Positions 3,301 through 39,838 of a stretch of DNA of 64,000 bases are shown in pieces. How positions within the stretch are numbered: position 1 is the stretch's first letter; the number at the start of each line of letters is the position of its first letter. Under the pieces are notes generated by a model. It had not been told where the DNA came from, made no database searches, and worked only from the letters and a program-made list of their open reading frames with translations. Source of the stretch: an uncultured Bacteroidaceae bacterium (lineage in GTDB: Bacteria > CAIWAD01); assembly GCA_964345075.1 (NCBI GenBank), contig CAYFPS010000007.1, positions 50,214 through 114,213 on the forward strand. The letters run 5' to 3'. The position numbers and the translations under genes are program-made.

Positions 3301-5541
3301 CTATTTGGCCGCCCGCTGCTCCACCTGGAACTGAATCGCATCGCCATCAAGCTGCACGCGAATGTTCAGGGCATGACCTTCAGCAGCCAGAATCTCTTCA
3401 TTGACCCTTTCGGCCACTTGTTCTTCAAATCCCTTGTCGACCAGTTTGGCACTGGCAATCCGGCCGCTGGTCCTGTGTGCCAGCCACTCGGCAACCCCTT
3501 CATCCAGCTGAAGCTCGTGGCCCAGCCGTCCCAGCTTTTCCTTGAAGGCGGGCACAATGCGCTCCTGCAGGATTTCCAGAAGATCCGCTTCGGACAAGGG
3601 CTGGAAGATGACCAGCTTGTCCACATTGGAAAGCAGGCCGGGCGAGAAGTATTCACGCAGGGCTTCCAGACTGGCTCCAGAAGCGGCGTCTGCCCCTCCC
3701 TGCTGGAAACCGATGCTACTTTTGTGCTCCATGCCGATCAGGTCTGAGAGCAGCACGACGGTCATGTCCGCCACGGGCAGCTGCTGGCCGGAAGCATCAC
3801 GCAGCATGCCTTCTTCAAAGCCTTTGAGGAAATAGCTGAGCACCTCGCCAGCGGCAAATTCGATGTTTTTCAGAATCAGCACGCGACGCGGATCACTTCG
3901 CAGGCGATCCAGCAGGCTGTGCGTGGGATAGCCTTCTTCCTGCCCGCCAAAACGGCCGACAATCCGCTGCAGGCTTTCCGCCTCCTGAAACTCGCTCAGC
4001 TCCACGAGAAAGGGTTCGTTGCCGTAGACAAGCCGGGAGAGTTCGGTGGCAAACAGCTGCTTGCCAACTCCCGATGGGCCGGCAAAGAGGAAAACACCGT
4101 CGGGACGCTCGGGATTCAGGTCCAGATCGCTCTTCATGAAGCGGATTGTGCGGCAAACCTCGGCAATGGCATTGTCCTGACCGATGATGCGCGCCTGCAG
4201 CGCCTCCTCCAGATGCTGCAGCTTCTCCTTGCGATCCGGAAAACGATCGTCACGCTTGCCCGTGATCCTGGCCAGCGCGGTGCGCAAAACGGACTCCCAG
4301 CTGGGCGGACAGCTACCCTCTTCCAGCGCCAGAATGGAAAGAGCCACATCCAGCAGGATCAGCGCCTTCTTGGGAAACTGCATGCCGCGAATGTGCTCGT
4401 CGGCCATTTCCACCACCTGCTCAAGCTGCGATTCGGATAGCTCGACGCCGTACTGCTCTTCAAAGCGCTCCTTGACGGTAGCGAGAATCTGCACAGCCTC
4501 GCCCCGGCCCAGCGATTTGATGTAGAGCGGACTCATCCACTCTTCAAATTGTGGATTGCCCTTGTAGACGCGATTGTAGAAGTCCACATCGGCCAGCAGC
4601 ACAAAGTGCAGCTTCTTCAGTTTGAGCATGCCCAGCAGGCGCTGCAAAAATTCCTGCAACATGGCATTGCCGCTGCCCAGCAGGTGCTGAATGCCATCGA
4701 CCACCATGATGATTTCCGTGTGTTGCTCGAGAAATCCCTGCAGCATGGCGAAGCGCTTGGCAAGATCCTGCGAACTCTGGAGATCACGCAGGAAGACTTC
4801 ATGATCGAATTCGAAAAAGCGTTTGCCGGCAAAGATCTGCGGGACCCTGCCCGCTGCCGTGTCCTCAATCAGTCGGCGCAAAACCGTGCTCTTGCCGCTG
4901 CCCGGCAGGCCGTACATCAGCAGATTCTGGCGATAGCGCCTGACCAGGACTTCCATGGCCGAGCGGCAATATTCGGGGTAATTCAACAGCCCCTGCATCG
5001 GTTCCGAACCGAAGCGGTGATTCAGGTCCTGATCCTGAGAAAAGAGCGCGCGCAGAAAGTGCTGCTCGCCCTCGCCCTCGCGCTCCAGTTCAATCCCCAG
5101 CTTCTCCAGCGGTACAGGATAGAGCTGCTGCCAGTTGTAAAGCACCAGATGCAGAAAGTCGTCCGCGTCCAGTTCGTCTTCGTCGCGGTCGCGCTGCCAG
5201 CTCATCAGCAGCTGACGGATCAGGTCGTCGGGCGGGGGCGCCATCAGCTCGGCCTGCTCCAGCAGCGCTTTAAGCTCCGGACTCAGTTCGACCGGCTCTT
5301 CATCATCCTTTTCGCCAGCCTCCTGGGCCGCAACAGCGCTGGAGGCCTGGGTGAAATGCTTGATCAGGGCATCGCGGTGCTCGTCATTCTTGATCAGGCC
5401 TTCCCAGAATTCCTCCAGTCCAGATTCCGGATCGAGGGCGGCAATCATGTATTCGGGCAGGCCCCAGGTGCTGCGGGTCAGCTTCAGGGCGGTGGTGGCG
5501 GCAGACTGAAAGACGTGAATCAGGGCGGCAGATAACTTCAT
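3301..5541 (-). CDS. ClpA/Hsp100-like double AAA+ ATPase with degenerate catalytic motifs
   Basis: D1 Walker A GLPGSGKST; D2 Walker A-like GPSGVGKQ (Q at the S/T position); Walker B-like VVDG and ILKNIE lack the DE pair. Layout matches ClpA D1/D2. Confidence 0.7.
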   Translation of the reverse strand: MKLSAALIHVFQSAATTALKLTRSTWGLPEYMIAALDPESGLEEFWEGLIKNDEHRDALIKHFTQASSAVAAQEAGEKDDEEPVELSPELKALLEQAELMAPPPDDLIRQLLMSWQRDRDEDELDADDFLHLVLYNWQQLYPVPLEKLGIELEREGEGEQHFLRALFSQDQDLNHRFGSEPMQGLLNYPEYCRSAMEVLVRRYRQNLLMYGLPGSGKSTVLRRLIEDTAAGRVPQIFAGKRFFEFDHEVFLRDLQSSQDLAKRFAMLQGFLEQHTEIIMVVDGIQHLLGSGNAMLQEFLQRLLGMLKLKKLHFVLLADVDFYNRVYKGNPQFEEWMSPLYIKSLGRGEAVQILATVKERFEEQYGVELSESQLEQVVEMADEHIRGMQFPKKALILLDVALSILALEEGSCPPSWESVLRTALARITGKRDDRFPDRKEKLQHLEEALQARIIGQDNAIAEVCRTIRFMKSDLDLNPERPDGVFLFAGPSGVGKQLFATELSRLVYGNEPFLVELSEFQEAESLQRIVGRFGGQEEGYPTHSLLDRLRSDPRRVLILKNIEFAAGEVLSYFLKGFEEGMLRDASGQQLPVADMTVVLLSDLIGMEHKSSIGFQQGGADAASGASLEALREYFSPGLLSNVDKLVIFQPLSEADLLEILQERIVPAFKEKLGRLGHELQLDEGVAEWLAHRTSGRIASAKLVDKGFEEQVAERVNEEILAAEGHALNIRVQLDGDAIQFQVEQRAAK

Positions 5542-11298: not shown

Positions 11299-12621
11299 CT
11301 AGAATCCCGGATCCATAACCAGCTGGTAGTCGCCAAATCCAGCGCGATCGATGAAGAGGAATTCGCGACCAATGGACTCGTAGCTCCAGCGCTCCCAGGC
11401 CGGGTAGTCCATTGATCCTTCAAATCGCTCGACTTCATCCGGATCACCATGAATCATGTAGACACGGCCTCGATCACTGCGCCAGCCCGGAAAGCGGCTC
11501 CAGGAAAAGCGCTGGTCGGCGAATTCGGCCCTGCGGTAATACTCGCGCATCAGCTCGTTGTCTTCCGTTTCCGGGTCCGGGTCCACGGATTTCCAGAATT
11601 CCTCAAAGCCTTTCTTCTTCAGCTCCATCGGACTTTCGGCCAGATTCCGGTAGCGCTTGCCGGGAAGGATATAGCGCAGCTGTTCGATGCTGCGATCCAG
11701 ATCACTGGGCGTGCCGGGACTTCCCCGCCAGCGCAGCTGAAAGGTCGCCTCGGCAGCGTGGTGAACCCTCTCTGGCCCTCGTTTGGCAAGAAAACCGCTG
11801 CGACCAACATCCTCGACGGCAGGGTCAAGCACTTCAATCAGCATGCGGTAATCGCCGGAGGCAAGCCGGTCGAGGGGCACCTGCAACAGGTTGCGTGATA
11901 CACCGGCCGGATATTCCCGCTCAATTCGCCGATCATGCACCTGATTCTCCCTGCGATCCTCAATCAGGCTGTGCAGTGCCAGCTTGCGTGCCTCCCTGGA
12001 CCAAACCTCGTAATACACAACCAACTCTTCAGGATGTGCGCCACCGTGTCCGGTCACAAAGGGCTGGCTGTCCAGTCCAGATGGCTCCAGGCTGTCTGCA
12101 TCACAGATCAGCCATAGCCGCGAAATCGCCCAATCCCGCTCGCTTAAGTCAGGAACCAGAAATCGGCCTTCCCGCCGAAAAATGCGTCGACTGTTCAGAT
12201 CCTGCAGCTCGACCCACCAGGTGTATTCGCCGGGTTCCACGGCTGCTTGGAAGCGATGCAGTTGCAGTTCCAGATCCGCGGCCTGAGGAAAGCCGTCGAT
12301 CCTGAGTTCACGCCGCTCGTGGCGCGAAGCGACACTGCGCTGCTTGCGTCCCTTGCCCTGCAGGATTTCCAGAGTGACTTCCCAACCAGCTTCGTAGGCA
12401 CCCGATCCGGCCTCGCCGCGCCTGAACTGCAGGTCCTCGGCTGACAGCACACAGGTGAAGACCTGTGTCTCATGGGCAAGGTTCAAGGAATCCAACTGCA
12501 GGCTGGATGAGTGCAGCACATGAAAATCCGGCTCCCAGCGCCTGTTGGAAAACATGTCGCCGGCCGCTGAACTCACCTGTATCACAAGCAGCAGCAAGGC
12601 AAGCCGCATGATCCACTTCAT
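11299..12621 (-). CDS. GWxTD domain-containing secreted protein
   Basis: Signal peptide MKWIMRLALLLLVIQVSSAAG; C-terminal FPGWRSDRGRVYMIHGDPDEVERF (GWxTD signature). Confidence 0.7.
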   Translation of the reverse strand: MKWIMRLALLLLVIQVSSAAGDMFSNRRWEPDFHVLHSSSLQLDSLNLAHETQVFTCVLSAEDLQFRRGEAGSGAYEAGWEVTLEILQGKGRKQRSVASRHERRELRIDGFPQAADLELQLHRFQAAVEPGEYTWWVELQDLNSRRIFRREGRFLVPDLSERDWAISRLWLICDADSLEPSGLDSQPFVTGHGGAHPEELVVYYEVWSREARKLALHSLIEDRRENQVHDRRIEREYPAGVSRNLLQVPLDRLASGDYRMLIEVLDPAVEDVGRSGFLAKRGPERVHHAAEATFQLRWRGSPGTPSDLDRSIEQLRYILPGKRYRNLAESPMELKKKGFEEFWKSVDPDPETEDNELMREYYRRAEFADQRFSWSRFPGWRSDRGRVYMIHGDPDEVERFEGSMDYPAWERWSYESIGREFLFIDRAGFGDYQLVMDPGF

Positions 12622-13934
12622 GTGCTTTCTCCCTGCTCAAGGGGCTCTGCAAAGAGGTCGTACTCCATTGCTTCCGTGTAGCGGACACGCAGGAATTCAC
12701 CCAAGGGATGAATGCCGCGGACTTCAACCGAGTTGTCGATATCCAGCGCGTCTCGACGGGAACGGCCCAGACTTGTGCCGGTGGCCTCGTCAATTTCGTC
12801 GATCAGAATCAGGTCTTCTTCGCCAACAAGCGTTTGATTGGCAGCAAGACTGATCTCCGCCTGCTGGCTCATCAACCGGTCCATGCGCTCTTCGGCCACT
12901 TCGCGGGGAATCTGCTCATCAAGTTTGAGCGCGGGCGTGCCCTCTTCCTGACTGTAAAGAAACGCCCCCAGACGGTCGAAGGGCTCGCTTTTGCAGAAGT
13001 CGAGCAGTTCCTGGAATTCGGCCTCGCCTTCTCCGGGAAAACCAAGAATGATCGATGTGCGCAGGATCAGACCCGGCACTGTATTGCGCATCATGCGCAT
13101 GGTGCGTGAAAGGCTCTCCGCATCGCCGCGCCGGGCCATGCGCTTCAGCACACTCCCTGATACATGCTCGACCGGAAAATCCAGATAGGGCAGAACGTGA
13201 TCCAGATCGGCCATGCTCTGCGCGAAGCGCTCATCGACCAGGGGCGGATGGCTGTAAAGCAGACGGATCCACTGGACGCCACAACCATTTAACGCAGCGA
13301 GAAGCTCGTTGATATCCGGCCCCTGTGTATCACGGCCATAGGAGCTGATTTCCTGACCAATAATGTTCAGCTCCTTTACCCCTCGGGAAGCCAGATGGCT
13401 CGCTTCGGCAACCAGGTCTTCCACACTGCGACTGCGCATGCGACCGCGCATCAGGGGAATGCTGCAGTAGGTACAGCGCTGATCACAACCATCGGAGATG
13501 CGCAGGTAGGCGCTGTGTCTGGGGCTGAGCAGCGTGCGGCCGGTAAAGAGCTCCAGACTGTCCCGCCCGGCGGCTGCTGGTTTAAGCCCCATGTCTCGCA
13601 GCATCGTACCGAACTCACCCACGCCGTATACGCCATCCAGCTCAGGGATCTCGCGGCGAATCTCATCACGGTAGCGCTCGCTCAGGCAGCCCATCACAAC
13701 CACGCGGCGACCGGCATGCTCTTTTTTCAGCTCCACGGCCTCCATCACCGCATCGATGCTTTCGACCCGGGCCGCATCGATGAAGCCACAGGTATTGACC
13801 ACAAGCAGGTCCGCCTTGGCGCCTTCGTCCACAAGATGAACACGGCCAGCCAGCTGCCCCAGAAGGATCTCCGAGTCAACCAGATTCTTGGCACAGCCAA
13901 CCGTGTGCATGTATACTCTCAGTTCAGGACTCAC
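12618..13934 (-). CDS. rimO: Ribosomal protein S12 methylthiotransferase (MiaB-family radical SAM, RimO-like)
   Basis: N-terminal MTTase Cys triad (VGCAKN...); radical SAM CTYCSIP; TRAM-like C-terminus. Confidence 0.75.
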   Translation of the reverse strand: MSPELRVYMHTVGCAKNLVDSEILLGQLAGRVHLVDEGAKADLLVVNTCGFIDAARVESIDAVMEAVELKKEHAGRRVVVMGCLSERYRDEIRREIPELDGVYGVGEFGTMLRDMGLKPAAAGRDSLELFTGRTLLSPRHSAYLRISDGCDQRCTYCSIPLMRGRMRSRSVEDLVAEASHLASRGVKELNIIGQEISSYGRDTQGPDINELLAALNGCGVQWIRLLYSHPPLVDERFAQSMADLDHVLPYLDFPVEHVSGSVLKRMARRGDAESLSRTMRMMRNTVPGLILRTSIILGFPGEGEAEFQELLDFCKSEPFDRLGAFLYSQEEGTPALKLDEQIPREVAEERMDRLMSQQAEISLAANQTLVGEEDLILIDEIDEATGTSLGRSRRDALDIDNSVEVRGIHPLGEFLRVRYTEAMEYDLFAEPLEQGEST

Positions 13935-14869
13935 TGGTCCTCCTCGCCATTGCCTGCGCCCAGCCCTTCAAACAAGGCCCGCGCATAAAGTGTAGAGTCA
14001 AAAGGCTGCAGGTCATCGATGCCTTCGCCCACACCAATCCAGCGAATGGGAATCCCCAGCTCGCGATGGATGGCCAGAGCAATGCCGCCCCGCGCTGTGC
14101 CGTCGAGCTTGGTCAGGACCAGTCCGGACACGCCCGTGCTACTCGAAAAGAGGCGCGCCTGCTGCAAGGCATTCTGCCCGGTGGTACCATCCAGGACCAG
14201 CAGAACCTCATGAGGCGCGCCCGGCAGGCGCTTGTCCAGCACACGGCGAATCTTGTCCAGTTCCTGCATCAGGTTCTTCTTGTTGTGAAGGCGGCCGGCA
14301 GTATCCACCAGCAGCAGATCGTGTCCTCTGGCCTGCGCCCGTCCCAGAGCGTCAAAGGCCACAGCCGCTGGATCCGCACCCTGCGCGGCCTTGACGATTT
14401 CAACCTCCGCCCTGCCAGCCCAGGCTTCCAGCTGCTCGATGGCGGCTGCGCGAAAGGTGTCGGCCGCAGCCAGCAGCACCTTGTGGCCATCGGCCTTGTA
14501 ACGGGCGGCCAGCTTGCCGATGGTGGTGGTCTTGCCCGCGCCGTTGACACCAACCACCAGCACGACCTTTAATTCAGGGCCAGCTTCTGCCTGCTGCTGC
14601 TCATCCTTGTGATTAAGCGCCTTCAGCAACTGCTCCTCAATCAGCTGATCCAGTTCTGTCTCTGCATCGTGCTTGATTGTATCACGCAGACCCTGAACGA
14701 TTTCGTCAACCAGTTCCCAACCGAGATCGGCGCCCAGCAGAATCTCTTCCAGTTCTTCGAGCATGGCCTCATCCACTCGGCGGCCTGTGCCCATCAGTTC
14801 ACGTATACGACCACTCAGGTTTTCCCGCGTGCGGTTCATGGCGCCACTCAGGCGGCGGAAGAGATTCAT
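13931..14869 (-). CDS. ftsY: Signal recognition particle receptor FtsY
   Basis: GVNGAGKTTTIGKLA, DTAGR and TKLDG motifs. Start trimmed to MNLFRR to remove the 124-nt overlap with nadK. Track ORF 13931..14989. Confidence 0.85.
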   Translation of the reverse strand: MNLFRRLSGAMNRTRENLSGRIRELMGTGRRVDEAMLEELEEILLGADLGWELVDEIVQGLRDTIKHDAETELDQLIEEQLLKALNHKDEQQQAEAGPELKVVLVVGVNGAGKTTTIGKLAARYKADGHKVLLAAADTFRAAAIEQLEAWAGRAEVEIVKAAQGADPAAVAFDALGRAQARGHDLLLVDTAGRLHNKKNLMQELDKIRRVLDKRLPGAPHEVLLVLDGTTGQNALQQARLFSSSTGVSGLVLTKLDGTARGGIALAIHRELGIPIRWIGVGEGIDDLQPFDSTLYARALFEGLGAGNGEEDQ

Positions 14870-15783
14870 TCGTCCTCCAGATTCCAGTGCAGCTTGCTGC
14901 GCAGCACTCCAATAAAGCCCGGTCGGCTGAGTTTCAACAGGTGGGTTCTGCGGGGACTGCGTTCGACGATTACCGTGCAGCCCTCCCACAGGTCCAGATT
15001 GAGCTGTCCGTCCACGGAGAGCTGCATGCGGCCATGCCGACTGTGAATGCGTGTTTCAATGCGCGCATCCGGTGATACAACGATTGGCCTGACCGACACC
15101 GAGTGGGGCATCACGGGTGTCAGCACAATCGCCTCCATGCCCGGATCAAGAATCGGCCCACCACCGCCAAGATTGTAAGCTGTGGACCCGGTGGGTGTGG
15201 CGTGAATCAGTCCATCGCCAGTCAACCGGAACAGGTTTTCACCATTGATGCGGGTTGTCAGACGCACCACGCGTCCGGGAAGCCCGCTGGTCAGGACGAT
15301 ATCGTTCAGCGCGTCTGCCTGTATGTGGTCTTCGCCCCCTTCGACTGTAACACGCAGCATCATGCGTTTTTCCAGATGCAGGCCGCCCGTGACGAGTTCG
15401 TCCAGACAATTTTCCAGGCCCTCTGGCGTGGTGGCTGTCAGGTAGCCCATCGAGCCCATGTGCAGGCCCAGCACAGGCAGATCACGCTCTAGCTGTGATA
15501 CAGCGGCAAGCAGGCTGCCGTCGCCGCCCAAACTTAAAATCAGATCGCAGTGGGCGGACAGTCGATCTTCAGGCAGGGCCTGTGCCGCGGCCTTGCGAAC
15601 GCCCTCATCCAGATCCCCCAGCATTTCCGCGAAACTGCGCGAAATGCGGCAGGCAATTCCGCGAGCTTCCAGCCCCGCGAGCAGGCGGGGCAGGACCTCC
15701 AGCAGACCTTCCGGTCGGGCTGTTCCGCGCATACCGATGACTGCGTTTTCGGGCAACCGATATACCTCGGCTGCGTGACGCAT
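14866..15783 (-). CDS. nadK: NAD+ kinase
   Basis: GGDGSLL motif and NE/DD region. Start uncertain; trimmed to MRHAAEV just after the xseB stop. Track ORF 14866..15864. Confidence 0.75.
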   Translation of the reverse strand: MRHAAEVYRLPENAVIGMRGTARPEGLLEVLPRLLAGLEARGIACRISRSFAEMLGDLDEGVRKAAAQALPEDRLSAHCDLILSLGGDGSLLAAVSQLERDLPVLGLHMGSMGYLTATTPEGLENCLDELVTGGLHLEKRMMLRVTVEGGEDHIQADALNDIVLTSGLPGRVVRLTTRINGENLFRLTGDGLIHATPTGSTAYNLGGGGPILDPGMEAIVLTPVMPHSVSVRPIVVSPDARIETRIHSRHGRMQLSVDGQLNLDLWEGCTVIVERSPRRTHLLKLSRPGFIGVLRSKLHWNLEDE

Positions 15784-15793
15784 CACGGGAAGA

Positions 15794-16039
15794 TCAGGTG
15801 AAGAGGTCATCGGAGGCTTCTGCTTCGCTTTCATCCACGCCCGCAGTTTCATCGTCCAGCACACTCAGGACTTCTTCTTCCACCTTGCGCAGGCGTTCCT
15901 GACAGAGGCGATGAAGTTCCATGCCTTCCTTGTAGGCCTTCAGGCTGTCTTCCAGCCCGACCTCTCCGTCTTCCAGCTGTGTGACAAGTTCTTCGAGACG
16001 CGCCATGGCTTCTTCGAAACTGGGCTTCTTGTTTGCCAT
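15794..16039 (-). CDS. xseB: Exodeoxyribonuclease VII small subunit
   Basis: FEEAMARLEELVTQLEDGEV...LEDSLKAYKEGMEL. Confidence 0.9.
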   Translation of the reverse strand: MANKKPSFEEAMARLEELVTQLEDGEVGLEDSLKAYKEGMELHRLCQERLRKVEEEVLSVLDDETAGVDESEAEASDDLFT

Positions 16040-17520
16040 CAGTCCTTGCTCCCTGTGACACGGGCCGTCACGCGGCCGTCATGAAATGTAATCTGCAGTT
16101 TATCGTTTTCCTTCAGCTCCTGCGCAGAGGAAATTCGCCCTCCCGCCTGATCGCTGATTCGGGCCATACCCAGACGGAAGGCCGTGGCCTCAATCCGGCC
16201 AAGTTCCAGCTGAGTCAGTCGCTTTTCAAGCTGGGCGAGCGTGCGCGTCTGCTGCTTGAGCCTTGTCCGCATGGCGCGGGTCAGACCGTTTTCCAGCTGA
16301 CGCAGGCTGCTCTGTTCCTGCCTGAGGCGAGCCGCCAGCAGGCGGGCAAAACGCTGCTTCCAGCCAAGGGCACGATCCGCCCCATCCGCATGCATGCGCA
16401 TCAGGGCACGCACCAGCCGACGCTTAAGGCCGGGCAAGCGATCGTGTTCCGTCTGCTGTATACGCTTGAGTGACCGCTTCAGCGAAGTATAGAGCTGGTC
16501 CAGTCGTTGCGAGGCATCCCGCAGGCGGCGTCCGGGTTCGGCCAGAGCACGATGGCTGGCCAGCGCCTGCAACTCCTGCCGTGAGTGATGAATGCGCCGC
16601 CTCATCGCCAGCCGGAGTCTCTCCTTCTGGCTGTTCAAGTAGACAAGCTGTTCGGCTCGATCCGGAACAGCCAGCTCGGCTGCCGCGCTGGGGGTGGGTG
16701 CCCGCAGGTCGGCGGCCAGATCGCTCAGGCCGTGATCCACTTCATGTCCGACGGCGCTGATGACCGGAACCGGACAAGCCCGAATCGCCCTGACCAGATC
16801 TTCATTGTTGAAGCCGAAGAGATCTTCGAAACTGCCGCCGCCCCGCCCGAGAATGATCAGATCCAGCTTAAGCTCCCGGGCGCGCGCTGAAAGCAGCTTC
16901 AGATTCTTTGCCAGAGCCGGACCACTCTGCGGCCCCTGCACGGGTGTTGACTTCAGAAACAGTTTAAGCCCGCGTTGCCTGCGCCCCAGCACTTGCAGCA
17001 TATCCTGCAGGGCGGCGCCTTCACGGGCAGTCAGGAGACCGATGCGCTGAGGGCATGCGGGAATGGGGCGTTTCAGGTCGGCTGCAAAAAGCCCTTCACG
17101 CTGAAGGCGTTCTTTCAACTCCAGAAAATCCTGCATCAGGCGACCCTGACCGGCTTCCCTGAGGTCCTGAACGTCCAGCTGCAGTCGCCCGCCTTTACCG
17201 TAGTAGACGATGCGCACCAGGGCTTCAACCTGCAAGCCATCGGAGGGCAAAACGCTCATGCGCCCCGCGCGCCCGCTCCAGAGCACGGCGGAAAACTGGG
17301 CTTCCTGATCCTTGAGGGTAAAGTAGCGGTGCCCCGAGCTGCCATAGTGCTTCAGCCCGGAGACTTCACCCCGGACCCAGACAGGCAGCAGGTGCTCCTC
17401 CAGATGGGCCGAGAAGATGCGGGCCAGCTCGCCGATGCTGATGGCCTTGCCGCCCCGGGCTGAGTTTGAGAAAGACACGGGCTTTCCTGATGAACTGCAA
17501 AAGCCATGGACGCGAAGCAT
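16039..17520 (-). CDS. xseA: Exodeoxyribonuclease VII large subunit
   Basis: OB-fold N-terminus (VWVRGEVSGL...SGHRYFTLKD) plus catalytic core. Annotated ATG lies in a hairpin loop; an alternative GTG start at ~17479 has an AGGAAA RBS. Confidence 0.8.
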   Translation of the reverse strand: MLRVHGFCSSSGKPVSFSNSARGGKAISIGELARIFSAHLEEHLLPVWVRGEVSGLKHYGSSGHRYFTLKDQEAQFSAVLWSGRAGRMSVLPSDGLQVEALVRIVYYGKGGRLQLDVQDLREAGQGRLMQDFLELKERLQREGLFAADLKRPIPACPQRIGLLTAREGAALQDMLQVLGRRQRGLKLFLKSTPVQGPQSGPALAKNLKLLSARARELKLDLIILGRGGGSFEDLFGFNNEDLVRAIRACPVPVISAVGHEVDHGLSDLAADLRAPTPSAAAELAVPDRAEQLVYLNSQKERLRLAMRRRIHHSRQELQALASHRALAEPGRRLRDASQRLDQLYTSLKRSLKRIQQTEHDRLPGLKRRLVRALMRMHADGADRALGWKQRFARLLAARLRQEQSSLRQLENGLTRAMRTRLKQQTRTLAQLEKRLTQLELGRIEATAFRLGMARISDQAGGRISSAQELKENDKLQITFHDGRVTARVTGSKD

Positions 17521-17562
17521 GCGCCCATGGCTTTCCTATTCTGGCATGCGACCACAAGGTAG

Positions 17563-17581
17563 CCGCTTCATCATGAAGCGG
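17563..17581. terminator. Perfect hairpin CCGCTTCAt(c)atGAAGCGG immediately after the small-peptide stop codon
   Basis: 19-nt near-perfect palindrome. T-rich tract (ttacttcttctt) on the plus-strand side only. Confidence 0.4.
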
Positions 17582-17671
17582 TTACTTCTTCTTGTGACGG
17601 TTCTTGCGCAGACGCTTTTTCCGCTTGTGCGTGGAAATCTTGTGGCGTTTCCGCTTCCTTCCGCAAGGCAC
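17582..17671 (-). CDS. Unannotated 29-aa lysine/arginine-rich peptide MPCGRKRKRHKISTHKRKKRLRKNRHKKK (bS22/bL37-like small basic ribosomal-protein candidate)
   Basis: GGAGG at 17677-17681, 5-nt spacer, GTG start at 17669-17671, TAA stop, hairpin immediately downstream. Sits 15 nt after the HU stop on the same strand. Below the ORF-track size cut-off. Confidence 0.55.
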   Translation of the reverse strand: MPCGRKRKRHKISTHKRKKRLRKNRHKKK

Positions 17672-17686
17672 GGCAACCTCCAACGT

Positions 17687-17977
17687 TTACTGGTTGTTTT
17701 TAGTGTCCTGAATTCTCTGCTTGAGTCGCTGAGCTGGCTTGAAGACAGCCACCCGGCGGTTTTCCAGCCAGACCGTCTCACCGGAGCGTGGATTGCGCGC
17801 GGGCCGCGGACGGCGCTCCTGCGTGCCAAACACACCGAAGCCGCGAAGCTCGACACGACCACCCTTGCAGAGTTCGTCGGACACGGCCTTCAGTGTCTGC
17901 TCAAGAACCACCTTCACTTCTTCCCGTGAAAGGCCGCTTGCAGCGGACACTGCCTCAACGAGAGCTTCTCGGTTCAT
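17687..17977 (-). CDS. HU/IHF family DNA-binding protein
   Basis: MNREALVEAVSAASGLS...RGFGVFGTQERRPRPARNPRSGETV. Confidence 0.9.
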   Translation of the reverse strand: MNREALVEAVSAASGLSREEVKVVLEQTLKAVSDELCKGGRVELRGFGVFGTQERRPRPARNPRSGETVWLENRRVAVFKPAQRLKQRIQDTKNNQ

Positions 17978-20019
17978 CCTTCCTCCGATAGGTAGATCAC
18001 AAGCGTACTTCCGGGCTGAATACCATCCCCGGAAAGTGAGTTCCAGCGACGAAGATCATTAATGCTGACCTTGTACCGTCGCGACAGGTCCCATAAGGTG
18101 TCCCCGCGCTGCACCACATGGTTGATCGACCGGGTGGTGCCTGCCCCCGAACGAAGCTTCAGCTTCTGACCGGGATAAATCGTGGCGCGTGAGTCAAGTC
18201 CATTCAGCTCGATGAGTTCTTCGAGCGACAAGCCATGCCGTCGAGCAATCACGCCCGCGACATCGCCGGACCTGACAACATAATGATCTTCAGGCAACTT
18301 CGCATTGGTCATTGCCGACTTGTTTGCATTCGGCCCGGAAAGCACCAGACGCTGCCCGGCGTAGATGCGATTCTTGTTCTTGATATGATTCCACGCCATC
18401 AGATCCTGCATGCTGATCGAATAGCTGCGGGCGATCCCTTCCAGGTTTTCACCCTTGCGAACGCGATGGACGGGGCGACCATCTTCATCCACCTTTGCCG
18501 CGCTGCCAGAGGCCAGCTCGGCTCCCTTTGGTACAGGAATCAGCAGATGCTGCCCGGGACGAATAATGGAGCGGCTGCTAAGCTTGTTGGCGCGCAAAAG
18601 CTCGCGCAGGCTGACCCCGTAACCGGCAGCAATCTGGCTTAGTGTATCACCACGTTTGATCTTGTAGCGCTTCCAGTCCTGATAGGCCGTTGCTGGCAAA
18701 TCGGCGATTTTCGCGGCAAAGGCCTCGGCCATGTCCGCCGGGGCATAGACGTGAGCGCCATCGGGCGGCGTGCAGAAGCGCAGAATATGCGGATTCCTGC
18801 TGCGGAACTCTTCCTCTTCGAGCTTGAGCATATCCGCCAGCCGATCCACATTCAACGCACCCGGGACATCAACGGCAACCCAGGGCTGCCAGGCCTCTTC
18901 TCCGGGTAGCTGATCCTTGAACTCATCGAAGACCCGCCGGGCTGCCAGATAAGTGGGGACATAATTGCGTGTCTCCCGGGGCATGCGCGGCAGGGTCCAG
19001 TAATCCTTGTTGCCCTTGTTGCGCTTGATCGCCCGGTTGACGCGGCCCGGGCCCCAGTTATAGGCGGCAAAGGCCAGATACCAGTCACCATACTGGTCAT
19101 AAAGGCTGCGCAGATAGCGGCTGGCCGCGCGGGTGGCCAGCTCCAGATCCAGACGCTCATCCATCCAGTAGTCCACACGCAGCTTGAACACACGCGCCGT
19201 CCCGGCCATGAACTGCCAGGGTCCGGTGGCGCTTACACGACTGCGGGCATTCATCTTGAGACCGGATTCAATCATGGCCAGAAAAACAAGATCCTCCGGC
19301 AGGCCCTCTTCCCTTAGATAACTGCGGATTGTAGGGCCAATCAGCGCGTAGCGCTCCATCCAGATCTCGTAGTAGCCACGGCCCTTCCCGCTGGTGAAAT
19401 AGTCGACCATGTGGTCAACTTCCTTGCGGTCCGCATCGGGAATGCCCGGGTAGGCGCTCAGACTGTCCTCGGCGACCATGTCCAGCAGTTCTTCAACTTC
19501 GAGCCCAAGCAGACTGTCCGGCTCGATGGCAATCTCCAGCAGACTGTCCAGCTCATCGGCTTGAACACTGCTGTCAGCAAGCTGGTCCAGTTCAAAGCGT
19601 AGCGAATGAATACCCTCCGCCTCGCTGGAATCGGGCGGTAAGCCCTGAGTCAGGCGCAGCATGTCGCGAGCAATGTCCACGCGCAGCTCCTGGGCTTCCA
19701 GAGCATCCAGACTGTCTTCGGGCCTGGTGCTGATCAGCTGCTGAAAGGCCTGGCTAAGCAGGTTGAGTGCACTGTCCGCTTCCCCGTCCCGCTCCAGCTC
19801 CAGGGCGTCGGCGTAAAGCAACAGGGGATCGCGCTCATGAAGACTGTCGTCGGCAATCTGCAGAGTCGCATCGGGTGCTGGGTCTTGCTGGGCGGGATGA
19901 CGCAGGGGGACCTGCAGGCACGCAACGAAAAGCAGCGTGCTTGACAAGAAGAGCAGGACTCTCACGGGGCTCCTGAAACTGTAAAGAAAAAGCCCTCTGT
20001 TGAAGGCCCGTTGATGCAA
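17974..20019 (-). CDS. mltD: Membrane-bound lytic murein transglycosylase D-like (SLT domain plus multiple LysM), lipoprotein
   Basis: Lipobox LLFVAC; SLT motif ESGLKMNARSRVSATGPWQF; several LysM repeats (GDTLSQIAAGYGVS...). Confidence 0.8.
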   Translation of the reverse strand: MHQRAFNRGLFLYSFRSPVRVLLFLSSTLLFVACLQVPLRHPAQQDPAPDATLQIADDSLHERDPLLLYADALELERDGEADSALNLLSQAFQQLISTRPEDSLDALEAQELRVDIARDMLRLTQGLPPDSSEAEGIHSLRFELDQLADSSVQADELDSLLEIAIEPDSLLGLEVEELLDMVAEDSLSAYPGIPDADRKEVDHMVDYFTSGKGRGYYEIWMERYALIGPTIRSYLREEGLPEDLVFLAMIESGLKMNARSRVSATGPWQFMAGTARVFKLRVDYWMDERLDLELATRAASRYLRSLYDQYGDWYLAFAAYNWGPGRVNRAIKRNKGNKDYWTLPRMPRETRNYVPTYLAARRVFDEFKDQLPGEEAWQPWVAVDVPGALNVDRLADMLKLEEEEFRSRNPHILRFCTPPDGAHVYAPADMAEAFAAKIADLPATAYQDWKRYKIKRGDTLSQIAAGYGVSLRELLRANKLSSRSIIRPGQHLLIPVPKGAELASGSAAKVDEDGRPVHRVRKGENLEGIARSYSISMQDLMAWNHIKNKNRIYAGQRLVLSGPNANKSAMTNAKLPEDHYVVRSGDVAGVIARRHGLSLEELIELNGLDSRATIYPGQKLKLRSGAGTTRSINHVVQRGDTLWDLSRRYKVSINDLRRWNSLSGDGIQPGSTLVIYLSEEG

Positions 20020-20061
20020 AGCTCGATGGCTTTATCAAGAGTAGCGGATTTGTCGCTCAAA

Positions 20062-20748
20062 TCAAAAGCCCGCGCTGCGCTTCATGTCCGGTGGAGCTGT
20101 TCTAAGCAAGGTGATAAAGCCCTTGATAATGGCCCCTTCTGCCTCTAACACACGGGCACAGCCCTGAAGGGTCGCACCGCTGGTCGTCACATCATCGACA
20201 AGCAGTATCTGTTCTCCACCAAGCCTGTGTGCCCTTCCCTTTCTTGAAAGCTGCCAGACGCCACCATGCAGCCGCTCGCCCAGTGATTTCTCCTTCTGGC
20301 TGATTAGAGAGGAGGGGCGATGCAGCAGGCCCGCGACCTCAAGCCCCCAGCTGCGGCCAAGCTCACTGGCCATCACCTTGACAGGATCCCAGCCGCGAAG
20401 GCGACGTCTGGTCAGGTCCGGCGGAACCGGCACCAGCAGCCCACTGGCCCAGGGTGGACGCTCCAGCCTTCTCATCAGACGTCCAAGCAGGCTGCGGTCC
20501 GCTTCTTCTTTCATCTCCTTGAAGAGGCGGGCAAGCGCACCTTCGTACCAGCCGACACTAAAGCCCGGAATGCCCTCCAGCGTCCAGAAGGGAGCTTTTT
20601 CGTTGAGCAGCTGCGAGAGACAATCCTCGCAGATGCGGCTGATTGGGGCACTTCGCGCAAAGGGATCCAGCGCAAGCGACTCTCCACAGCTGGAGCATTC
20701 GGCTGGCAGGAGGAGGTTACAGATCAGGTGATGAAACAGATATCGCAT
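20062..20748 (-). CDS. comF: ComF family protein (phosphoribosyltransferase-fold competence protein ComFC)
   Basis: N-terminal Cys-rich region; PRTase motif ILLVDDVTTSGATL. Confidence 0.75.
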   Translation of the reverse strand: MRYLFHHLICNLLLPAECSSCGESLALDPFARSAPISRICEDCLSQLLNEKAPFWTLEGIPGFSVGWYEGALARLFKEMKEEADRSLLGRLMRRLERPPWASGLLVPVPPDLTRRRLRGWDPVKVMASELGRSWGLEVAGLLHRPSSLISQKEKSLGERLHGGVWQLSRKGRAHRLGGEQILLVDDVTTSGATLQGCARVLEAEGAIIKGFITLLRTAPPDMKRSAGF

Positions 20749-34322: not shown

Positions 34323-36952
34323 GACTTCAGTCCATTTTTCGATACATGTATCACAACCAGCGTCAAGTCATCTACTTGCTCGTTGCCTTTTTCCCAGGCC
34401 CTGACTTCTTCATGAATCTCGGCCTCCAGCTCTTCGGCCGTACTGGCCTGACTGCCTTCCAGCAGTTGCCGCAGACGATCTTCACCGAATTCTTCTTCCT
34501 GTCCGTTTTGAGCCTCCGTCAGGCCGTCGGTGTAGAAGATCAGCCAGTCTCCGGGCACAAGCTCCAGGTCTTCGGCGTCGTAGCCCACTCCGGCAAACAT
34601 GCCGAGTGCCATGCCACCGCAATCCAGCGTGCGACAGGTTCCCGCACGCAGCAGTAGTGGTGGATTGTGTCCGGCGTTGGAATAGTGCAGGCGAAAGCCC
34701 TCTGTCGTCCGCTCCAGCTGCCCCTGCACAAAGGTTACAAAGAGCTCGTCAGCCGTTGTCGCAGCCAGGCGGTCATTCAGGCGCACATTGCTCTCGGCAC
34801 TGTCCAGGTCAAGCTCCAGCATGCTGCGCCAAGCGGCCTGAAGGTTGCTCATCAGTAGCGCGGCGGCCACGCCCTTGCCGGAGACATCACCCAGTGCCAG
34901 AAAAACCGAGTCATTACTCTGTGATACAAAATCATAGTAATCGCCGCCGGTTTCAAGCGCCATCCGGCAACCACCGGCAATCTGCAAGCCTGGTATGCAG
35001 GGAGGCGCAGCGGGCAACAAGCCCTGTTGGATGTTGCGCGCAATGGTCAGTTCACGCTCAAGCCGCTCTTTGACGGCCAGATCCCGCATATTATCACGAA
35101 TCCGCGAGCTCATGGCATTGAAGGACCGGGCCAGTCTGCCCAGCTCGTCTTCCGTGCGAATTGGCAGGACAAGGTCCAGATTGCCACGGGCAAGCTCCTC
35201 GGTGCCTGCACGCAATTCTTCCGTGCTGCGCGTGATACGCAGATTGATCCGCCAGGCAATCCAGAAGCCTATCAGCAACAGAGGAATAAGATTCAGCAGC
35301 AGCACCACCAGCACAACGACATAGTGGACGATCACCACACGCTCGCTGTTCAGCAGCACGGGAAGAATCTTGCCGGGAAGTGCCTCAGCCTGCGCCAGGA
35401 TCTGTTCGCTGGCATCCGCCAGAGGAAAATCCCTGTCGCCGATCCGCGACAGACCCAGCGCAAAAAAGCGGCGCGAGAAGGGATCGGAGGGAACAGGATA
35501 ACCGCGTGTGCGCCCCAGTTCCCGCGCGCTGTAGGTTCCAAAGCCAAAGGTGCTGGTCAGAAAGGCCGGCAAATCCGCACCGCTGATGGAAACCAGCCTG
35601 ACCTCACTGCCGACGGCCTCTGCAATTCGATCGACTGCCTCTGCATCCAGCGGAAAGAAGCCCAGCGCCAGCAATCGTTCCCGCTCCACCATGGCCACCT
35701 GCCAGGCCTTGCTTCCAACGCGTATCACGCCCGTTGAACTGCGAGTACGCCAGTCAGCTGGAAGCTCGAGTTGGTCCAGTGGAAAATCACCCGGCATGCG
35801 CCAGCTGGAAATCAGCCGCCGCCAGCTCTCGGTAGATGTGCTGTCGGCAGGATCCGCTTCCCGCTGCCTCAAATAAAGGCTGTAATGGCCGCGCCCGGCG
35901 TCGTGTTCGCTGCCCAGACTGCGAATCTGTTGTTCAAACAGTTGTTGGGCCTGTCTGTCCAGCGGGTTTGAATATGCCTGTGCGAAAAGGGAAGTAATCA
36001 GGCGACCACTCTCCATGCGCGTATCCAGACCTCGTGATACAAGGTGTGCGCGGTAAGTGCCCAGAACGACAAAGGCCGCGGTTCCAATCAGAATGCCAAG
36101 CAGCAGCAGCGGCAGCAGGCCGGTAAGGAGAGCGTTGGTGGCCAGCTTGGTGCGAATGCGACTTTCCATCAGCAGGCGGCGAACCAGCAGAAAGCTCAAC
36201 AGCAGCAGCAGGATGCTGGTAAAGGCCAGGGCCGGACCGTGGGAAGGCGCAAACCAGGCTTCCAGCTGGCGGGCAGCATCAACAGGGGCTGTATCGAAAG
36301 TGCTGGCCTGAACCTGGCTACCGAAATTCCTGACGAAGTTCAAAATGGCCCAGAATCCTTGAACCACAAAAAGCAGCCAGGCCAGTGGAATCCAGCGGTG
36401 CAGGCTGGCCACGCTTAACCAGCGCCAGCCGGCCAGAAGGGCCAGAGGAATCAGGAAATTGGAATTCCCGAAAAGCAGGCCGGTAATGGTTAGCAGGGCC
36501 ACCAGCCAGCGACCTATGCGCCTTCGCCAGCGGAGATCGGATTCATCACACCACCATTTGACAGCCTGATCCAGAATCAGACCAGAAAGCAGGAGCTGCA
36601 CCAGAAAGGCAGGCAGGAGCCAGCCGATGGCTCCGCTGGAGCTGGCCAGAAAGGTAAAGGGGTAAATCAGTCCGGAAGCCGCCAGCAGAAGCCAGGAGGC
36701 AGGCTCAAACTCAACCTGCAAGCGTCTGACCAGCAGCCAGGCGGCAGCAATCAGCAGGAGTCCGGCAGCGGCAGGCAGCTCCTCCGATCCCTGTGAATAG
36801 GCCAGCCATGCCCAGCTGCAACCGCCAAGGGCAAAGCTCAGGGGCCAGCGCCACTGACGATCCAGATGGCGCAGCCAGCTTCGAAGAATGCGTGGTTGTG
36901 TTGTGTTGCTCATGAAACCCGCGGGCGCTTCAGAAAGGCGCCGGAAGCACAT
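34319..36952 (-). CDS. Multi-pass membrane sensor with HAMP and PP2C (SpoIIE/RsbU-type) phosphatase domain
   Basis: More than 10 TM segments; HAMP; PP2C motif LALGDVSGKGVAAALLMSNL. Confidence 0.75.
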   Translation of the reverse strand: MCFRRLSEAPAGFMSNTTQPRILRSWLRHLDRQWRWPLSFALGGCSWAWLAYSQGSEELPAAAGLLLIAAAWLLVRRLQVEFEPASWLLLAASGLIYPFTFLASSSGAIGWLLPAFLVQLLLSGLILDQAVKWWCDESDLRWRRRIGRWLVALLTITGLLFGNSNFLIPLALLAGWRWLSVASLHRWIPLAWLLFVVQGFWAILNFVRNFGSQVQASTFDTAPVDAARQLEAWFAPSHGPALAFTSILLLLLSFLLVRRLLMESRIRTKLATNALLTGLLPLLLLGILIGTAAFVVLGTYRAHLVSRGLDTRMESGRLITSLFAQAYSNPLDRQAQQLFEQQIRSLGSEHDAGRGHYSLYLRQREADPADSTSTESWRRLISSWRMPGDFPLDQLELPADWRTRSSTGVIRVGSKAWQVAMVERERLLALGFFPLDAEAVDRIAEAVGSEVRLVSISGADLPAFLTSTFGFGTYSARELGRTRGYPVPSDPFSRRFFALGLSRIGDRDFPLADASEQILAQAEALPGKILPVLLNSERVVIVHYVVVLVVLLLNLIPLLLIGFWIAWRINLRITRSTEELRAGTEELARGNLDLVLPIRTEDELGRLARSFNAMSSRIRDNMRDLAVKERLERELTIARNIQQGLLPAAPPCIPGLQIAGGCRMALETGGDYYDFVSQSNDSVFLALGDVSGKGVAAALLMSNLQAAWRSMLELDLDSAESNVRLNDRLAATTADELFVTFVQGQLERTTEGFRLHYSNAGHNPPLLLRAGTCRTLDCGGMALGMFAGVGYDAEDLELVPGDWLIFYTDGLTEAQNGQEEEFGEDRLRQLLEGSQASTAEELEAEIHEEVRAWEKGNEQVDDLTLVVIHVSKNGLKS

Positions 36953-37766
36953 CCAACCTGCTTAGCAGATGCAGCACGGGAACCGCGAAAATCCATGAAT
37001 CGAAGCGGTCCAGCACTCCACCATGTCCGGGGAGGAGATTTGCCGAGTCTTTCACCCCCGCGTCCCGCTTCAGCCGTGACTCCAGCAGGTCACCCATGGG
37101 TCCAAGCAGGCCCATGATCAGACCCAGCAGCAGACCGGCAGGCACCAGTTCCGGAGAAAAAAAGCGGGCAGCCAGCGAACCGGCAAACATGGCACCCAGC
37201 AGACCGGCCACAAAGCCCTCAATGGTCTTTTTGGGTGATACACGCTCGAATAGTTTGTGACGACCAAAAAAGCGGCCGCCAAAATAGGCAAAAGTGTCAG
37301 TGGCCCAGGTGCTGATCAGCAGCATGATCATCAGGGGCCCGGCGGGGGCATCGGCGGCAACCAGCTCCCGGTTCATGGCCGTCAGAGCAGCAAAGGGCAG
37401 GGTGCCGATCAGGGCCGCCGTCATGGCACCGCCGATTCCGGCCAGCACTTCGCTGCGGGAGCTGAACAGCTCGCGGGCCAGCAGCGCCAGCATCCAGATA
37501 GCTGTCAGCGTTCCGAACAGGGCATGGAAATCCAGCGTGGAAAAGCCAGCGGCCAGCGGAAGAACCACGACATAAGGCATAACCCAACCGCGGGAATGTC
37601 CGATGCCCTTTTCCTTGAGCAGGTTGCACATTTCCAGAAAGGCCAACAGACTCAGCAGGGTACAAAGCAGGGTAAGGCCTGCTCCGCCCAACCAGAAAAG
37701 GAGCCCCAGAATCGGGACTCCAACGAGGGATGTGAGTACGCGGGATTGTAGATCGCTCAGCTGCAT
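36930..37766 (-). CDS. cdsA: Phosphatidate cytidylyltransferase
   Basis: CTP-transferase signature region near the C-terminus. Start trimmed to MQLSDLQ. Track ORF 36930..37880. Confidence 0.8.
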   Translation of the reverse strand: MQLSDLQSRVLTSLVGVPILGLLFWLGGAGLTLLCTLLSLLAFLEMCNLLKEKGIGHSRGWVMPYVVVLPLAAGFSTLDFHALFGTLTAIWMLALLARELFSSRSEVLAGIGGAMTAALIGTLPFAALTAMNRELVAADAPAGPLMIMLLISTWATDTFAYFGGRFFGRHKLFERVSPKKTIEGFVAGLLGAMFAGSLAARFFSPELVPAGLLLGLIMGLLGPMGDLLESRLKRDAGVKDSANLLPGHGGVLDRFDSWIFAVPVLHLLSRLDVLPAPF

Positions 37767-37963
37767 GTCGCAAGGTAAGGCTTTTCCGCCAAGGCACCTT
37801 GACTGGAAGTCCGGTTTGCAAAGATTTCGCCCCTTGGTGTAGAGCCAGGTAGAGATTTCCTTCAGCCGGCCGCAAAACAAGGATCCTCTTGCGGCCTAGC
37901 ACTTGAAAAAACCCGCATATTCACCTATTATGAGCGGTTTGAGCATTTGGGAGAAACAGCCTT

Positions 37964-39787
37964 ATGATGCGGACACTCCGCGACAACACCAAGGTCATCC
38001 TCTGGATTCTGATCCTTGTCTTCGTGGCCACCATTGTTTTCAGCTGGGGTATGGGCGGTTTTGATACCGTATCCGGACCCACCGGCACGGTAGTGGCCAA
38101 CGTGGACGGCGAGGAGATCGATTTTCGCGAATACGAGCGGCTGGTCTCCAACCGCCTGCAGCAGACGGGCGACCGCGCAGACAATGCGCAGGTGCTGAAT
38201 GCGCGCAAGAACGGCTGGAACGATCTGGTCAATCTCGCGCTGGAGCGGCAGGCCTGTGCCGAGCTGGGCATCAACGCCAGTGACGGCGAAGTGGCTGACA
38301 TGATTCAGTACATGCCACCGGCAAGTGTCACCAGCGACACCACTTTTATGAGCAATGGCGTCTTTGATACGCTCAAGTGGCACGACATTCTGCGCAGCGA
38401 GAACCTTAAAGGTTATCTGCTGGCCATGGAAGCCCAGTATCGCCAGAGTCTGCCCTACCAGAAGCTGCGCAGCCGCATCAACAGTTTTGCGCTGGCTTCC
38501 GATGCGGACCTCGAAGAAGACTTCCTGGTGAAGAACCAGACGGCTCAGGGCCGTTACATGGTCTTCCCTTACAACACCTTTGATGTGGACTCGGCCAGTG
38601 TGACCGAGGCGGATCTGAAGGCCTGGTACGACAGCAAGCGCGACGATTTCAAGAGCGACGAAGAGCGCGAGATCGATTATGTGCAGTTTGAGGTCAAGCC
38701 TTCGGCCGAAGACACGCTGGACGCGCAGGACCAGATTGCCTACATCAAGCGCCAGCTGGATCGTGGCGAATCCTTTGAGGACATGGCCCGCACCTACTCC
38801 ACCGATGCATCCAACGCGGATCGCGGTGGTGATCTTGGCTGGTTCGGCCCCGGTCGCATGGTGCCGGCTTTTGAAGAAGCTGCCTTTGCCGCTGAAATTG
38901 GCTCGATTGTCGGCCCCGTGGAAACCCGCTTCGGCCTGCACCTGATCAAGGTCAATGATCACGAGGAGCGCGACAAGGGCGATGGCGAAAAGGAAGAGCA
39001 GGTTTCGGCCCAGCACATCCTGATCAAGTACGAAGCCAGCTCGATGACTCACAGCGATCTGCGCGCCAAGGCTGATGCGCTTTACGAGGATGCCCAGAAC
39101 GGTAATTTCGAAGTGCTTTGTGCCGAGCGCGGTTTCGAGATCAAGGAGGGCCGTCCCTTTGCCAAGGGTGGAAACGTCCCGGGTGTGGGTCGTAGCGCAC
39201 GCGCTTCGGATCTTGTCTATGCTGCGCAGGAAGGCAGCGTGATCAGCCCCGTATACGACGCCCGTGGTGGCTGGTTCGTGATGCGACTGAAGAAGGTCAT
39301 GCCTGAAGGTCTGAAGCCCCTGAGCGAAGTCCGCGATCGAGTCTACGGCGAGGTCTACAAGCAGAAGCAGCAGGACAAGGCTCTGGCCGCCGCCGAAGCC
39401 TGGCTCGCCGCCAACCCCGTGGCCAGTCTGGACAGCAGCCTTGCCGCCAGCAAGATCGAGTTCGGACAACTGGCCGAGCCCATCAAGATCAACCAGTTCA
39501 TTCGTGGCTCAATCGGCCGCGATCTGGCCTTCTCCACCAGTCTCTTCACGCAGCCTGTGGGCGAAATCGGCAAGCCCTTCGCCGGCGTACGCGGCGCTTA
39601 CATTGTTGAGTGCACGGCCCGTGACGATGCAGGCGAACTGCTGGCCTCACTGGAAAAGGACCTGCCCACACGCCGCTCCGATGCGATCAACACGCAGAGC
39701 AGTGGTGCTTATGGCAGCTGGTCTCGTTTTGCCAAGGACAAGGCCCTCATTGAGGACAACCGTGTCCGCTTCGGAATCGATTACTGA
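37964..39787 (+). CDS. ppiD: Periplasmic chaperone/peptidyl-prolyl isomerase PpiD (SurA-like, parvulin domain)
   Basis: N-terminal TM, parvulin region HILIKYEASS... Confidence 0.75.
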   Translation: MMRTLRDNTKVILWILILVFVATIVFSWGMGGFDTVSGPTGTVVANVDGEEIDFREYERLVSNRLQQTGDRADNAQVLNARKNGWNDLVNLALERQACAELGINASDGEVADMIQYMPPASVTSDTTFMSNGVFDTLKWHDILRSENLKGYLLAMEAQYRQSLPYQKLRSRINSFALASDADLEEDFLVKNQTAQGRYMVFPYNTFDVDSASVTEADLKAWYDSKRDDFKSDEEREIDYVQFEVKPSAEDTLDAQDQIAYIKRQLDRGESFEDMARTYSTDASNADRGGDLGWFGPGRMVPAFEEAAFAAEIGSIVGPVETRFGLHLIKVNDHEERDKGDGEKEEQVSAQHILIKYEASSMTHSDLRAKADALYEDAQNGNFEVLCAERGFEIKEGRPFAKGGNVPGVGRSARASDLVYAAQEGSVISPVYDARGGWFVMRLKKVMPEGLKPLSEVRDRVYGEVYKQKQQDKALAAAEAWLAANPVASLDSSLAASKIEFGQLAEPIKINQFIRGSIGRDLAFSTSLFTQPVGEIGKPFAGVRGAYIVECTARDDAGELLASLEKDLPTRRSDAINTQSSGAYGSWSRFAKDKALIEDNRVRFGIDY

Positions 39788-39810
39788 TTCCATTTGCAGC
39801 CAACAAGAAG

Positions 39811-39838
39811 GGTCCCGAACGATCGGGACGCTTTTTAT
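39811..39838. terminator. Intrinsic terminator after ppiD (GTCCCGAacgaTCGGGACgcttttta); overlaps the convergent M23 stop
   Basis: 7-bp stem, 4-nt loop, T-tract. Confidence 0.75.

Follow-up and report, generated by a model that had tools for sequence, protein, structure and literature searches.

A 29-codon gene, very probably for ribosomal protein bS22, left unannotated behind an HU-family gene in an uncultured FCB-group lineage

In the ribosomes for which its structure has been solved, protein bS22 sits between h44 and h45 of the small-subunit rRNA and contacts H68/H70 (PMC7797042, PMC10618245, PMC12123416). The actinobacterial form of bS22, together with mS38 (AURKAIP1/COX24) and eL41, fills an equivalent rRNA pocket with a similar short basic helix (PMC7797042, PMC10618245, PMC12123416), and whether the different forms of bS22 reflect homology or convergence is debated (PMC12123416). 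In Mycobacterium smegmatis, deletion of bS22 raises susceptibility to kanamycin through an altered h44 pocket (PMC10081302). In Flavobacterium johnsoniae, 70S complexes contain bS22 whereas isolated 30S subunits lack it, and IF3 is a proposed contact partner; given its absence from 30S subunits, bS22 is only doubtfully a constitutive component of the subunit, even in model organisms (PMC13000457). The Borrelia burgdorferi gene, which has a GUG start and is among the essential-gene candidates, remained unannotated until the protein was found in cryo-EM density (PMC10618245). In a 2026 paper, bS22 is still said to occur in "Mycobacteria and Bacteroidia" (PMC13000457). The Borrelia study predicted a wider distribution (PMC10618245).

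We analyzed a stretch of DNA of 64,000 nucleotides (the window; all positions are counted from its first letter), in which a first-pass annotation had proposed an unannotated, lysine- and arginine-rich frame of 29 codons on the minus strand, directly downstream of a gene for HU. Direct reading of the minus strand confirmed this frame: it starts with GTG (17671..17669), runs for 29 codons (17671..17582, peptide MPCGRKRKRHKISTHKRKKRLRKNRHKKK), and ends with TAA (17584..17582). The Shine-Dalgarno motif GGAGG is present as described (17677..17681, minus strand), with a spacer of 5 nt to the GTG. A distance of 15 nt had been given between the HU stop and GGAGG; this figure holds for the gap between the HU stop and the GTG (ACGTTGGAGGTTGCC, minus strand), whereas GGAGG itself lies 5 nt past the HU stop. 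The encoded peptide contains 10 K, 7 R, and 3 H (59% K+R) and no D or E, with a computed pI of 12.0 and a mass of about 3.7 kDa, and thereby shows the traits of the bS22 family, whose members have about 28-33 residues, are extremely basic, and lack acidic residues.

The program-made list of ORFs contains this frame only as an ORF of 33 amino acids extended to a TTG (17582..17683). This TTG at 17683 was rejected as the start codon, as the homologues all start at MP and the Shine-Dalgarno motif would fall inside the extension. On the opposite strand, the ORF 17417..17929 contains MKRLLLLVTVL... precisely opposite the peptide. This ORF, which had been called spurious, is a shadow of both the peptide gene and the HU gene, because it also runs antisense through the latter, which has Pfam support (PF00216). 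Gene finders likely miss the frame owing to its length of 90 nt and its GTG start.

To place the peptide among proteins of solved structure, we compared it by phmmer with 177,635 PDB sequences, reporting matches to E<=10. Only three chains were returned, all of them of the bS22 type and all matched over their full length (residues 1-29 or 1-28): 7jil_5, the bS22 of F. johnsoniae (E 6.4e-9, 79% identity); 9i5v_10, a 30-amino-acid "AURKAIP1/COX24 domain-containing protein" (E 9.8e-9, 83% identity); and 8fmw_V, the bS22 of B. burgdorferi (E 1.9e-8, 86% identity). A strong K/R bias generally inflates similarity scores, and these E-values already include the HMMER bias term. Chain 9i5v_10 is likely the bS22 of Porphyromonas gingivalis, because a bS22 of 30 amino acids has been described for that organism (PMC12123416). 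In an alignment of five sequences with the solved proteins, 18 of 29 columns are invariant, including a non-basic signature (P2, G4, T14, H15, N24, and H26, in addition to M1) that is also kept in the relatives of the window lineage. Searches of Pfam and NCBIfam gave no match to the peptide even at E<=1.

The first-pass annotation had likened the peptide to the tiny basic ribosomal proteins bS22 and bL37, known mainly from Actinobacteria. The bS22 half of this comparison is borne out by the cryo-EM chains of three ribosomes, whereas the bL37 half is not: no bL37 chain appears among the PDB matches at E<=10, either for the peptide or for a profile of its family. The actinobacterial likeness also fails, as the closest forms are those of Bacteroidota and Borrelia. 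The family profile did not reach actinobacterial bS22, mS38, or eL41 in the PDB, and BLASTP of the window peptide against a sequence that we take to be M. smegmatis bS22 gave no alignment at E<=100. That sequence, whose identity as bS22 is confirmed by its own PDB matches, hits only actinobacterial bS22 and, weakly, mS38, so that its list of matches does not overlap with that of the window peptide. Since the two peptides do not align and their PDB lists are disjoint, we assign the window peptide to the Bacteroidota/spirochaete type. Judged by these matches, the ORF 17671..17582 (minus strand) very probably encodes a ribosomal protein bS22 of this sequence type, and we hold this reading with high confidence.

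The gene lies in a block of ten genes on the minus strand (12618-20748), encoding a ComF-like protein, MltD, HU, bS22, XseA, XseB, NadK, FtsY, RimO, and a GWxTD-domain protein. Upstream of bS22 are an MltD-like lytic transglycosylase with LysM repeats (17974..20019; PF01464 SLT and PF01476 LysM in the equivalent protein of relatives) and, overlapping its stop by 4 nt (17974-17977), an HU/IHF-family DNA-binding protein of 96 amino acids (17687..17977, stop TAA at 17689-17687; PF00216, E 3.6e-26). The latter scores below the NCBIfam equivalog cut-offs for both IHF and HU and is named "integration host factor subunit beta" in one source. The next gene downstream is xseA, encoding the large subunit of exodeoxyribonuclease VII (16039..17477, identified through the Pfam families of its orthologues). 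Its true start is probably GTG 17477 rather than the ATG 17520 of the mechanical ORF, since a 1-nt insertion just 5' of this GTG in the closest relatives would break the longer frame. AGGAAAG lies upstream of the GTG, and the longer extension overlaps a terminator-like hairpin; the xseA gene calls of relatives are likely over-extended too. The window as a whole has 59% GC and ordinary chromosomal content, and it contains no 16S rRNA. Its peak of AT skew (0.16, at 36000-40000) coincides with a plus-strand gene for a PpiD/SurA-like protein of 607 amino acids (37964..39787), overlapped by a minus-strand ORF of 513 amino acids that has no Pfam match and is its shadow; the peak is a mere strand switch and nothing unusual.

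To follow the frame through related genomes, we used three sets of relatives: L001-L010, with about 85% DNA identity over 8.3 kb, one true relative found through XseA (L011, 49% XseA identity), and five found through RimO, which is encoded 3.7 kb away (L211, L212, L214, L216, and L215, with 72, 70, 62, 60, and 49% RimO identity, respectively). The ten-gene block is kept in all of these relatives, down to 49% RimO identity. Among named organisms, the nearest by RimO are Candidatus Cloacimonetes (62%) and Candidatus Delongbacteria (47-49%), followed by Zixibacteria, Marinimicrobia, and "FCB group bacterium"; by sequence, the window belongs to an uncultured lineage of the FCB group. Among the papers listed in our search of the literature, none combines bS22 with these phylum names.

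The bS22 ORF was present in every gap between HU and xseA for which DNA was available (L001-L010, L011, L211, L212, L214, L215, and L216), which makes six separate relatives, reaching as far as 49% RimO identity, in addition to L001-L010, which encode a peptide identical to that of the window. No relative examined has a gene call in this gap, and among about 15 billion collected proteins none is identical to the window peptide. L011, L211, L212, L214, L215, and L216 keep an (A)GGAGG motif upstream of the start, at a distance of 4-6 nt, so that frame, Shine-Dalgarno motif, and position after HU are retained in every relative examined. The start codon is GTG in the window, L001-L010, L011, L211, and L212, TTG in L214 and L216, and ATG in L215; this prevalence of GTG and TTG starts is a lesser point of note. 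In L214 ("Ca. Cloacimonetes", 5160-5180), the two genes are coupled much more closely than in the window: the Shine-Dalgarno motif AAGGAGG overlaps the final codons and the stop codon of HU, and only 1 nt separates that stop from the TTG start.

Across the seven 29-codon sequences of the lineage, the variable sites number 3, 2, and 21 at the first, second, and third codon positions. The window and L212 differ by 12 synonymous and no non-synonymous codon changes, their peptides being identical at 70% RimO identity, and the window and L011 differ by 12 synonymous and 2 non-synonymous changes (R5K and H10A); of the 16 nucleotides that differ between the window and L011, 13 are third positions of codons, while the flanking intergenic DNA cannot be aligned. 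Pairwise ratios of synonymous to non-synonymous codon changes within the lineage range from 12:0 to 7:3. Because the changes are mostly synonymous and at third positions while the surrounding intergenic DNA is unalignable, the frame evolves as expected of a gene that is translated and strongly constrained by purifying selection.

The 3' flank of the gene contains two hairpins. The first, which had been described as a 19-nt hairpin immediately after the stop codon, is a perfect 9+1+9 palindrome (17563..17581, minus strand; CCGCTTCAT-G-ATGAAGCGG) that as RNA forms a stem of 8 bp with a loop of 3 nt, and no U-tract follows it. A segment of 61 nt that spans the last codons and this hairpin has a folding energy of -21.7 kcal/mol (z = -3.3); none of 200 shuffles was as stable. 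The second (17499..17535, minus strand) has a 15-bp stem (GAAAGCCAUGGGCGC / GCGUCCAUGGCUUUU), in which UUUU stands at the end of the 3' arm, base-paired to the G/A-tract upstream; the segment with both hairpins (17590..17485) folds at -46.7 kcal/mol (z = -4.6). Our scan for promoters and terminators on the minus strand called neither hairpin, under a rule that needs at least five T. Folding shows no hairpin between HU and bS22. Since no terminator separates the genes, the gap is only 15 nt, and the Shine-Dalgarno motif is strong, mltD, HU, and bS22 are probably co-transcribed; hairpin 2 is a probable intrinsic terminator of this transcript, which probably ends, at least in part, before xseA. 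The inclusion of xseAB in the same operon, as had been suggested, is therefore doubtful, with two strong hairpins between the bS22 stop and the probable xseA start.

Hairpin 2 is 100% identical in L001-L010, which are 85% identical to the window overall. It lies within an island of 236 nt (17479-17715) that differs from these relatives by a single synonymous substitution (AAC>AAT) against a background divergence of 15%; about 105 nt of the island are non-coding and hold both hairpins. The two best of 162 segments of 200 nt in the 8.3-kb comparison (99% identity, against a median of 84.5%) cover bS22 and its 3' flank. The island may reflect either an RNA element with a function or a tract left by recombination. 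No Rfam family reaches its gathering score within the window, where a sub-threshold match to SNORD31 near the locus is a chance match, and therefore no known ribosomal-protein leader or riboswitch lies at the locus. In each of the more distant relatives of the lineage, a strong GC-rich hairpin of a different sequence follows the bS22 stop, kept as structure only. Over 81 loci, the fold after the stop has z < -2 in 43%. The scenario in which the hairpin alone would be the conserved element is thereby defeated, as it is the sequence of the ORF that is kept while that of the hairpin differs from relative to relative.

To estimate the breadth of the family, we scanned metagenomes for the degenerate back-translation of PCG[RK]KRKxxKISTHKRKK as a DNA pattern, which matched at least 120 stretches. 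All 80 loci listed contain an intact ORF of 28-33 amino acids with a start codon directly before PCG (ATG in 78, GTG in 2). In a first class (12 of these 80), an HU-family gene ends 12-132 nt upstream; mltD precedes HU in 5 of the 12, and xseA-xseB-nadK follow in 2, as in the window. A second class (32 of the 80) has low GC and an A-rich leader without a Shine-Dalgarno motif, and shows the order HU, a gene of about 270 codons, bS22, and an RNase E/G-like gene, with HU 0.6-1.6 kb upstream of bS22. The intervening gene encodes a membrane protein (for example, L091 4039-7050 and L092 7940-11072). By sequence identity this second class is assigned to Bacteroidota, because an identical 29-amino-acid peptide comes from Reichenbachiella, and Sediminibacterium provides a 30-amino-acid peptide that clusters with it at 90% identity. 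The third class, made up of the remaining loci with enough flanking DNA (L094, L095, L109-L112, L117, L121, L123, L134, L136, L146, L153, L168, and others), encodes a 33-amino-acid variant ending in RAWG (for example, MPCGRKRKRRKIRTHKRKKMRRRLRHLKKRAWG) that has a Shine-Dalgarno motif and lies between hisG-like and ispE-like genes, with no HU.

In addition, we searched 1.84 billion representative proteins exhaustively by phmmer, with the 33-amino-acid TTG-extended reading as the query, and obtained 245 matches. The best 150 of these are all longer than the true peptide, and carry bS22 mostly at the extreme C-terminus of over-extended calls or as residues 1-29 of run-ons; the N-terminally over-extended calls among the matches listed have 34-152 amino acids. 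The sources name the family "hypothetical protein", "AURKAIP1/COX24 domain-containing protein" (Sediminibacterium), or "bS22" (the Borrelia PDB chain). In this collection, bS22 is seen almost exclusively in the form of faulty gene calls.

The position of the ORF, immediately 5' of xseA throughout the lineage, with two strong hairpins between them in the window and a hairpin after the stop in every lineage relative, suggests a regulatory leader peptide for xseAB, whose translation would control the hairpins and read-through while the peptide itself has no function. We consider this highly improbable: it is the amino acid sequence that is conserved (12 synonymous against 0-2 non-synonymous changes), whereas the hairpin sequences vary, and close homologues have been seen bound in ribosomes. 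The peptide is also encoded before RNase E/G in the Bacteroidota-type loci and beside hisG and ispE in the RAWG class. Moreover, our XseA search of genome contigs yielded, besides the one true relative L011, 79 other loci from unrelated phyla, and none of these 79 has a bS22 ORF within 4 kb of xseA.

An HU-family gene lies on the same strand within 1.6 kb upstream of bS22 in 44 of the 80 loci listed (L091-L170). It adjoins bS22 directly in the window lineage and in 12 of the metagenome loci, and is found at a distance of 0.6-1.6 kb in another 32. Given this position and a composition (59% K+R, no acidic residue) that would bind any polyanion, the peptide could be imagined as a general nucleic-acid-binding polycation that acts with HU on DNA, or in some other non-ribosomal role. 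This too is very unlikely, as the peptide has 79-86% full-length identity to peptides seen in the ribosome density of three species, the invariant non-basic residues P2, G4, T14, H15, N24, and H26 would be needless for a mere polycation, and the RAWG class shows no linkage to HU. Finally, a chance open frame in an intergenic stretch rich in K/R codons, with the hairpin alone functional, might be suspected from the 90-nt length, the GTG start, the absence of gene calls in the relatives examined, and the lack of a Pfam or NCBIfam match, but has next to no probability left, being already refuted by the codon pattern (3/2/21), the identical peptide at 70% RimO identity, the conservation of the ORF where hairpin sequences differ, and PDB matches at E of about 1e-8.

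On the preferred reading, that of a ribosomal protein bS22, translation would begin at GTG 17671, from a transcript shared with mltD and HU that would end at the two hairpins before xseA. By analogy with the solved homologues, the peptide would form a short basic helix lodged in the 16S rRNA between h44 and h45, beside the decoding center, and its C-terminal lysines would contact H68/H70 of the 23S rRNA, adding an intersubunit bridge comparable to eukaryotic eL41. Expression and ribosome binding in the window organism would be expected on the same grounds.

The window bS22 is a genuine but ordinary addition to a known family, and it mainly exposes an annotation gap; its biology is not new. It fills in a ribosomal protein gene missing from the annotation of an uncultured FCB-group lineage and extends the range of bS22 beyond Mycobacteria/Actinobacteria, Bacteroidia, and Borrelia, a broadening that the Borrelia study had predicted. 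The blind spot is systematic, as the gene has only 90 nt, its start codon is often GTG or TTG, and neither Pfam nor NCBIfam offers a model that works; with a dedicated bS22 profile, the gene would be recovered from many genomes. Because bS22 adjoins the aminoglycoside site in h44, its distribution among bacteria matters to some extent for antibiotic susceptibility. The recurrent proximity of HU suggests an old linkage with bS22, which may be ancestral, the two genes being adjacent in the window and one gene apart in Bacteroidota. A broader proposal, which we regard as unlikely, is that bS22 is ancient and near-universal in the FCB superphylum and in other uncultured lineages, was ancestrally linked to HU, and has a regulatory 3' hairpin region. 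If this were true, the 3' hairpin (for example, through autoregulation or transcript stabilization) would couple the expression of nucleoid and ribosomal proteins, and bS22 would be a protein hidden by automated annotation rather than a curiosity of two or three phyla.

Among the known systems, mycobacterial bL37 resembles the window peptide in being a very short, basic, and recently discovered ribosomal peptide, but belongs to another subunit and site than bS22 (PMC10081302). Actinobacterial bS22 (M. smegmatis, e.g., 5O61) is comparable in size and charge, but has no detectable sequence similarity to the window peptide. Profile similarity to actinobacterial bS22 and mS38 (Pfam COX24_C) is likewise absent, no Pfam family being matched at E<=1; the name "AURKAIP1/COX24" is nevertheless given to family members by some sources. 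The equivalence of the window peptide to actinobacterial bS22, mS38, and eL41 rests on published structural superpositions (PMC7797042, PMC10618245, PMC12123416), not on sequence.

The bS22 of B. burgdorferi (bb0822, 8FMW) is much closer (86% identity), with an identical N-terminus (MPCGRKRK) and core (KISTHKRKK), and the window gene resembles it in its non-ATG (GTG) start and in having been left unannotated. It differs in being from another phylum, in its length of 28 amino acids, and in having LKK at positions 9-11 and KRRK at positions 20-23. The Bacteroidota proteins, F. johnsoniae Fjoh_1533 (7JIL) and the P. gingivalis hypothetical protein AAQ66340.1 (likely 9I5V), have 29-30 amino acids and 79-83% identity to the window peptide, with which they share the motif MPxG(K/R)KRKRHK..THKRKKR..NRHKKK. 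Residue 3 is Cys in the window and Ser or Asn in these two solved proteins, although many Bacteroidota-type metagenome copies carry PCG like the window. The window gene starts with GTG behind a strong Shine-Dalgarno motif; in the low-GC Bacteroidota-type loci, by contrast, the start codon is ATG and the leader is A-rich and lacks this motif. HU adjoins bS22 in the window, whereas in the Bacteroidota-type loci the gene of about 270 codons lies between them and RNase E/G follows. Most of these loci nonetheless have an HU-family gene upstream on the same strand, as in the window.
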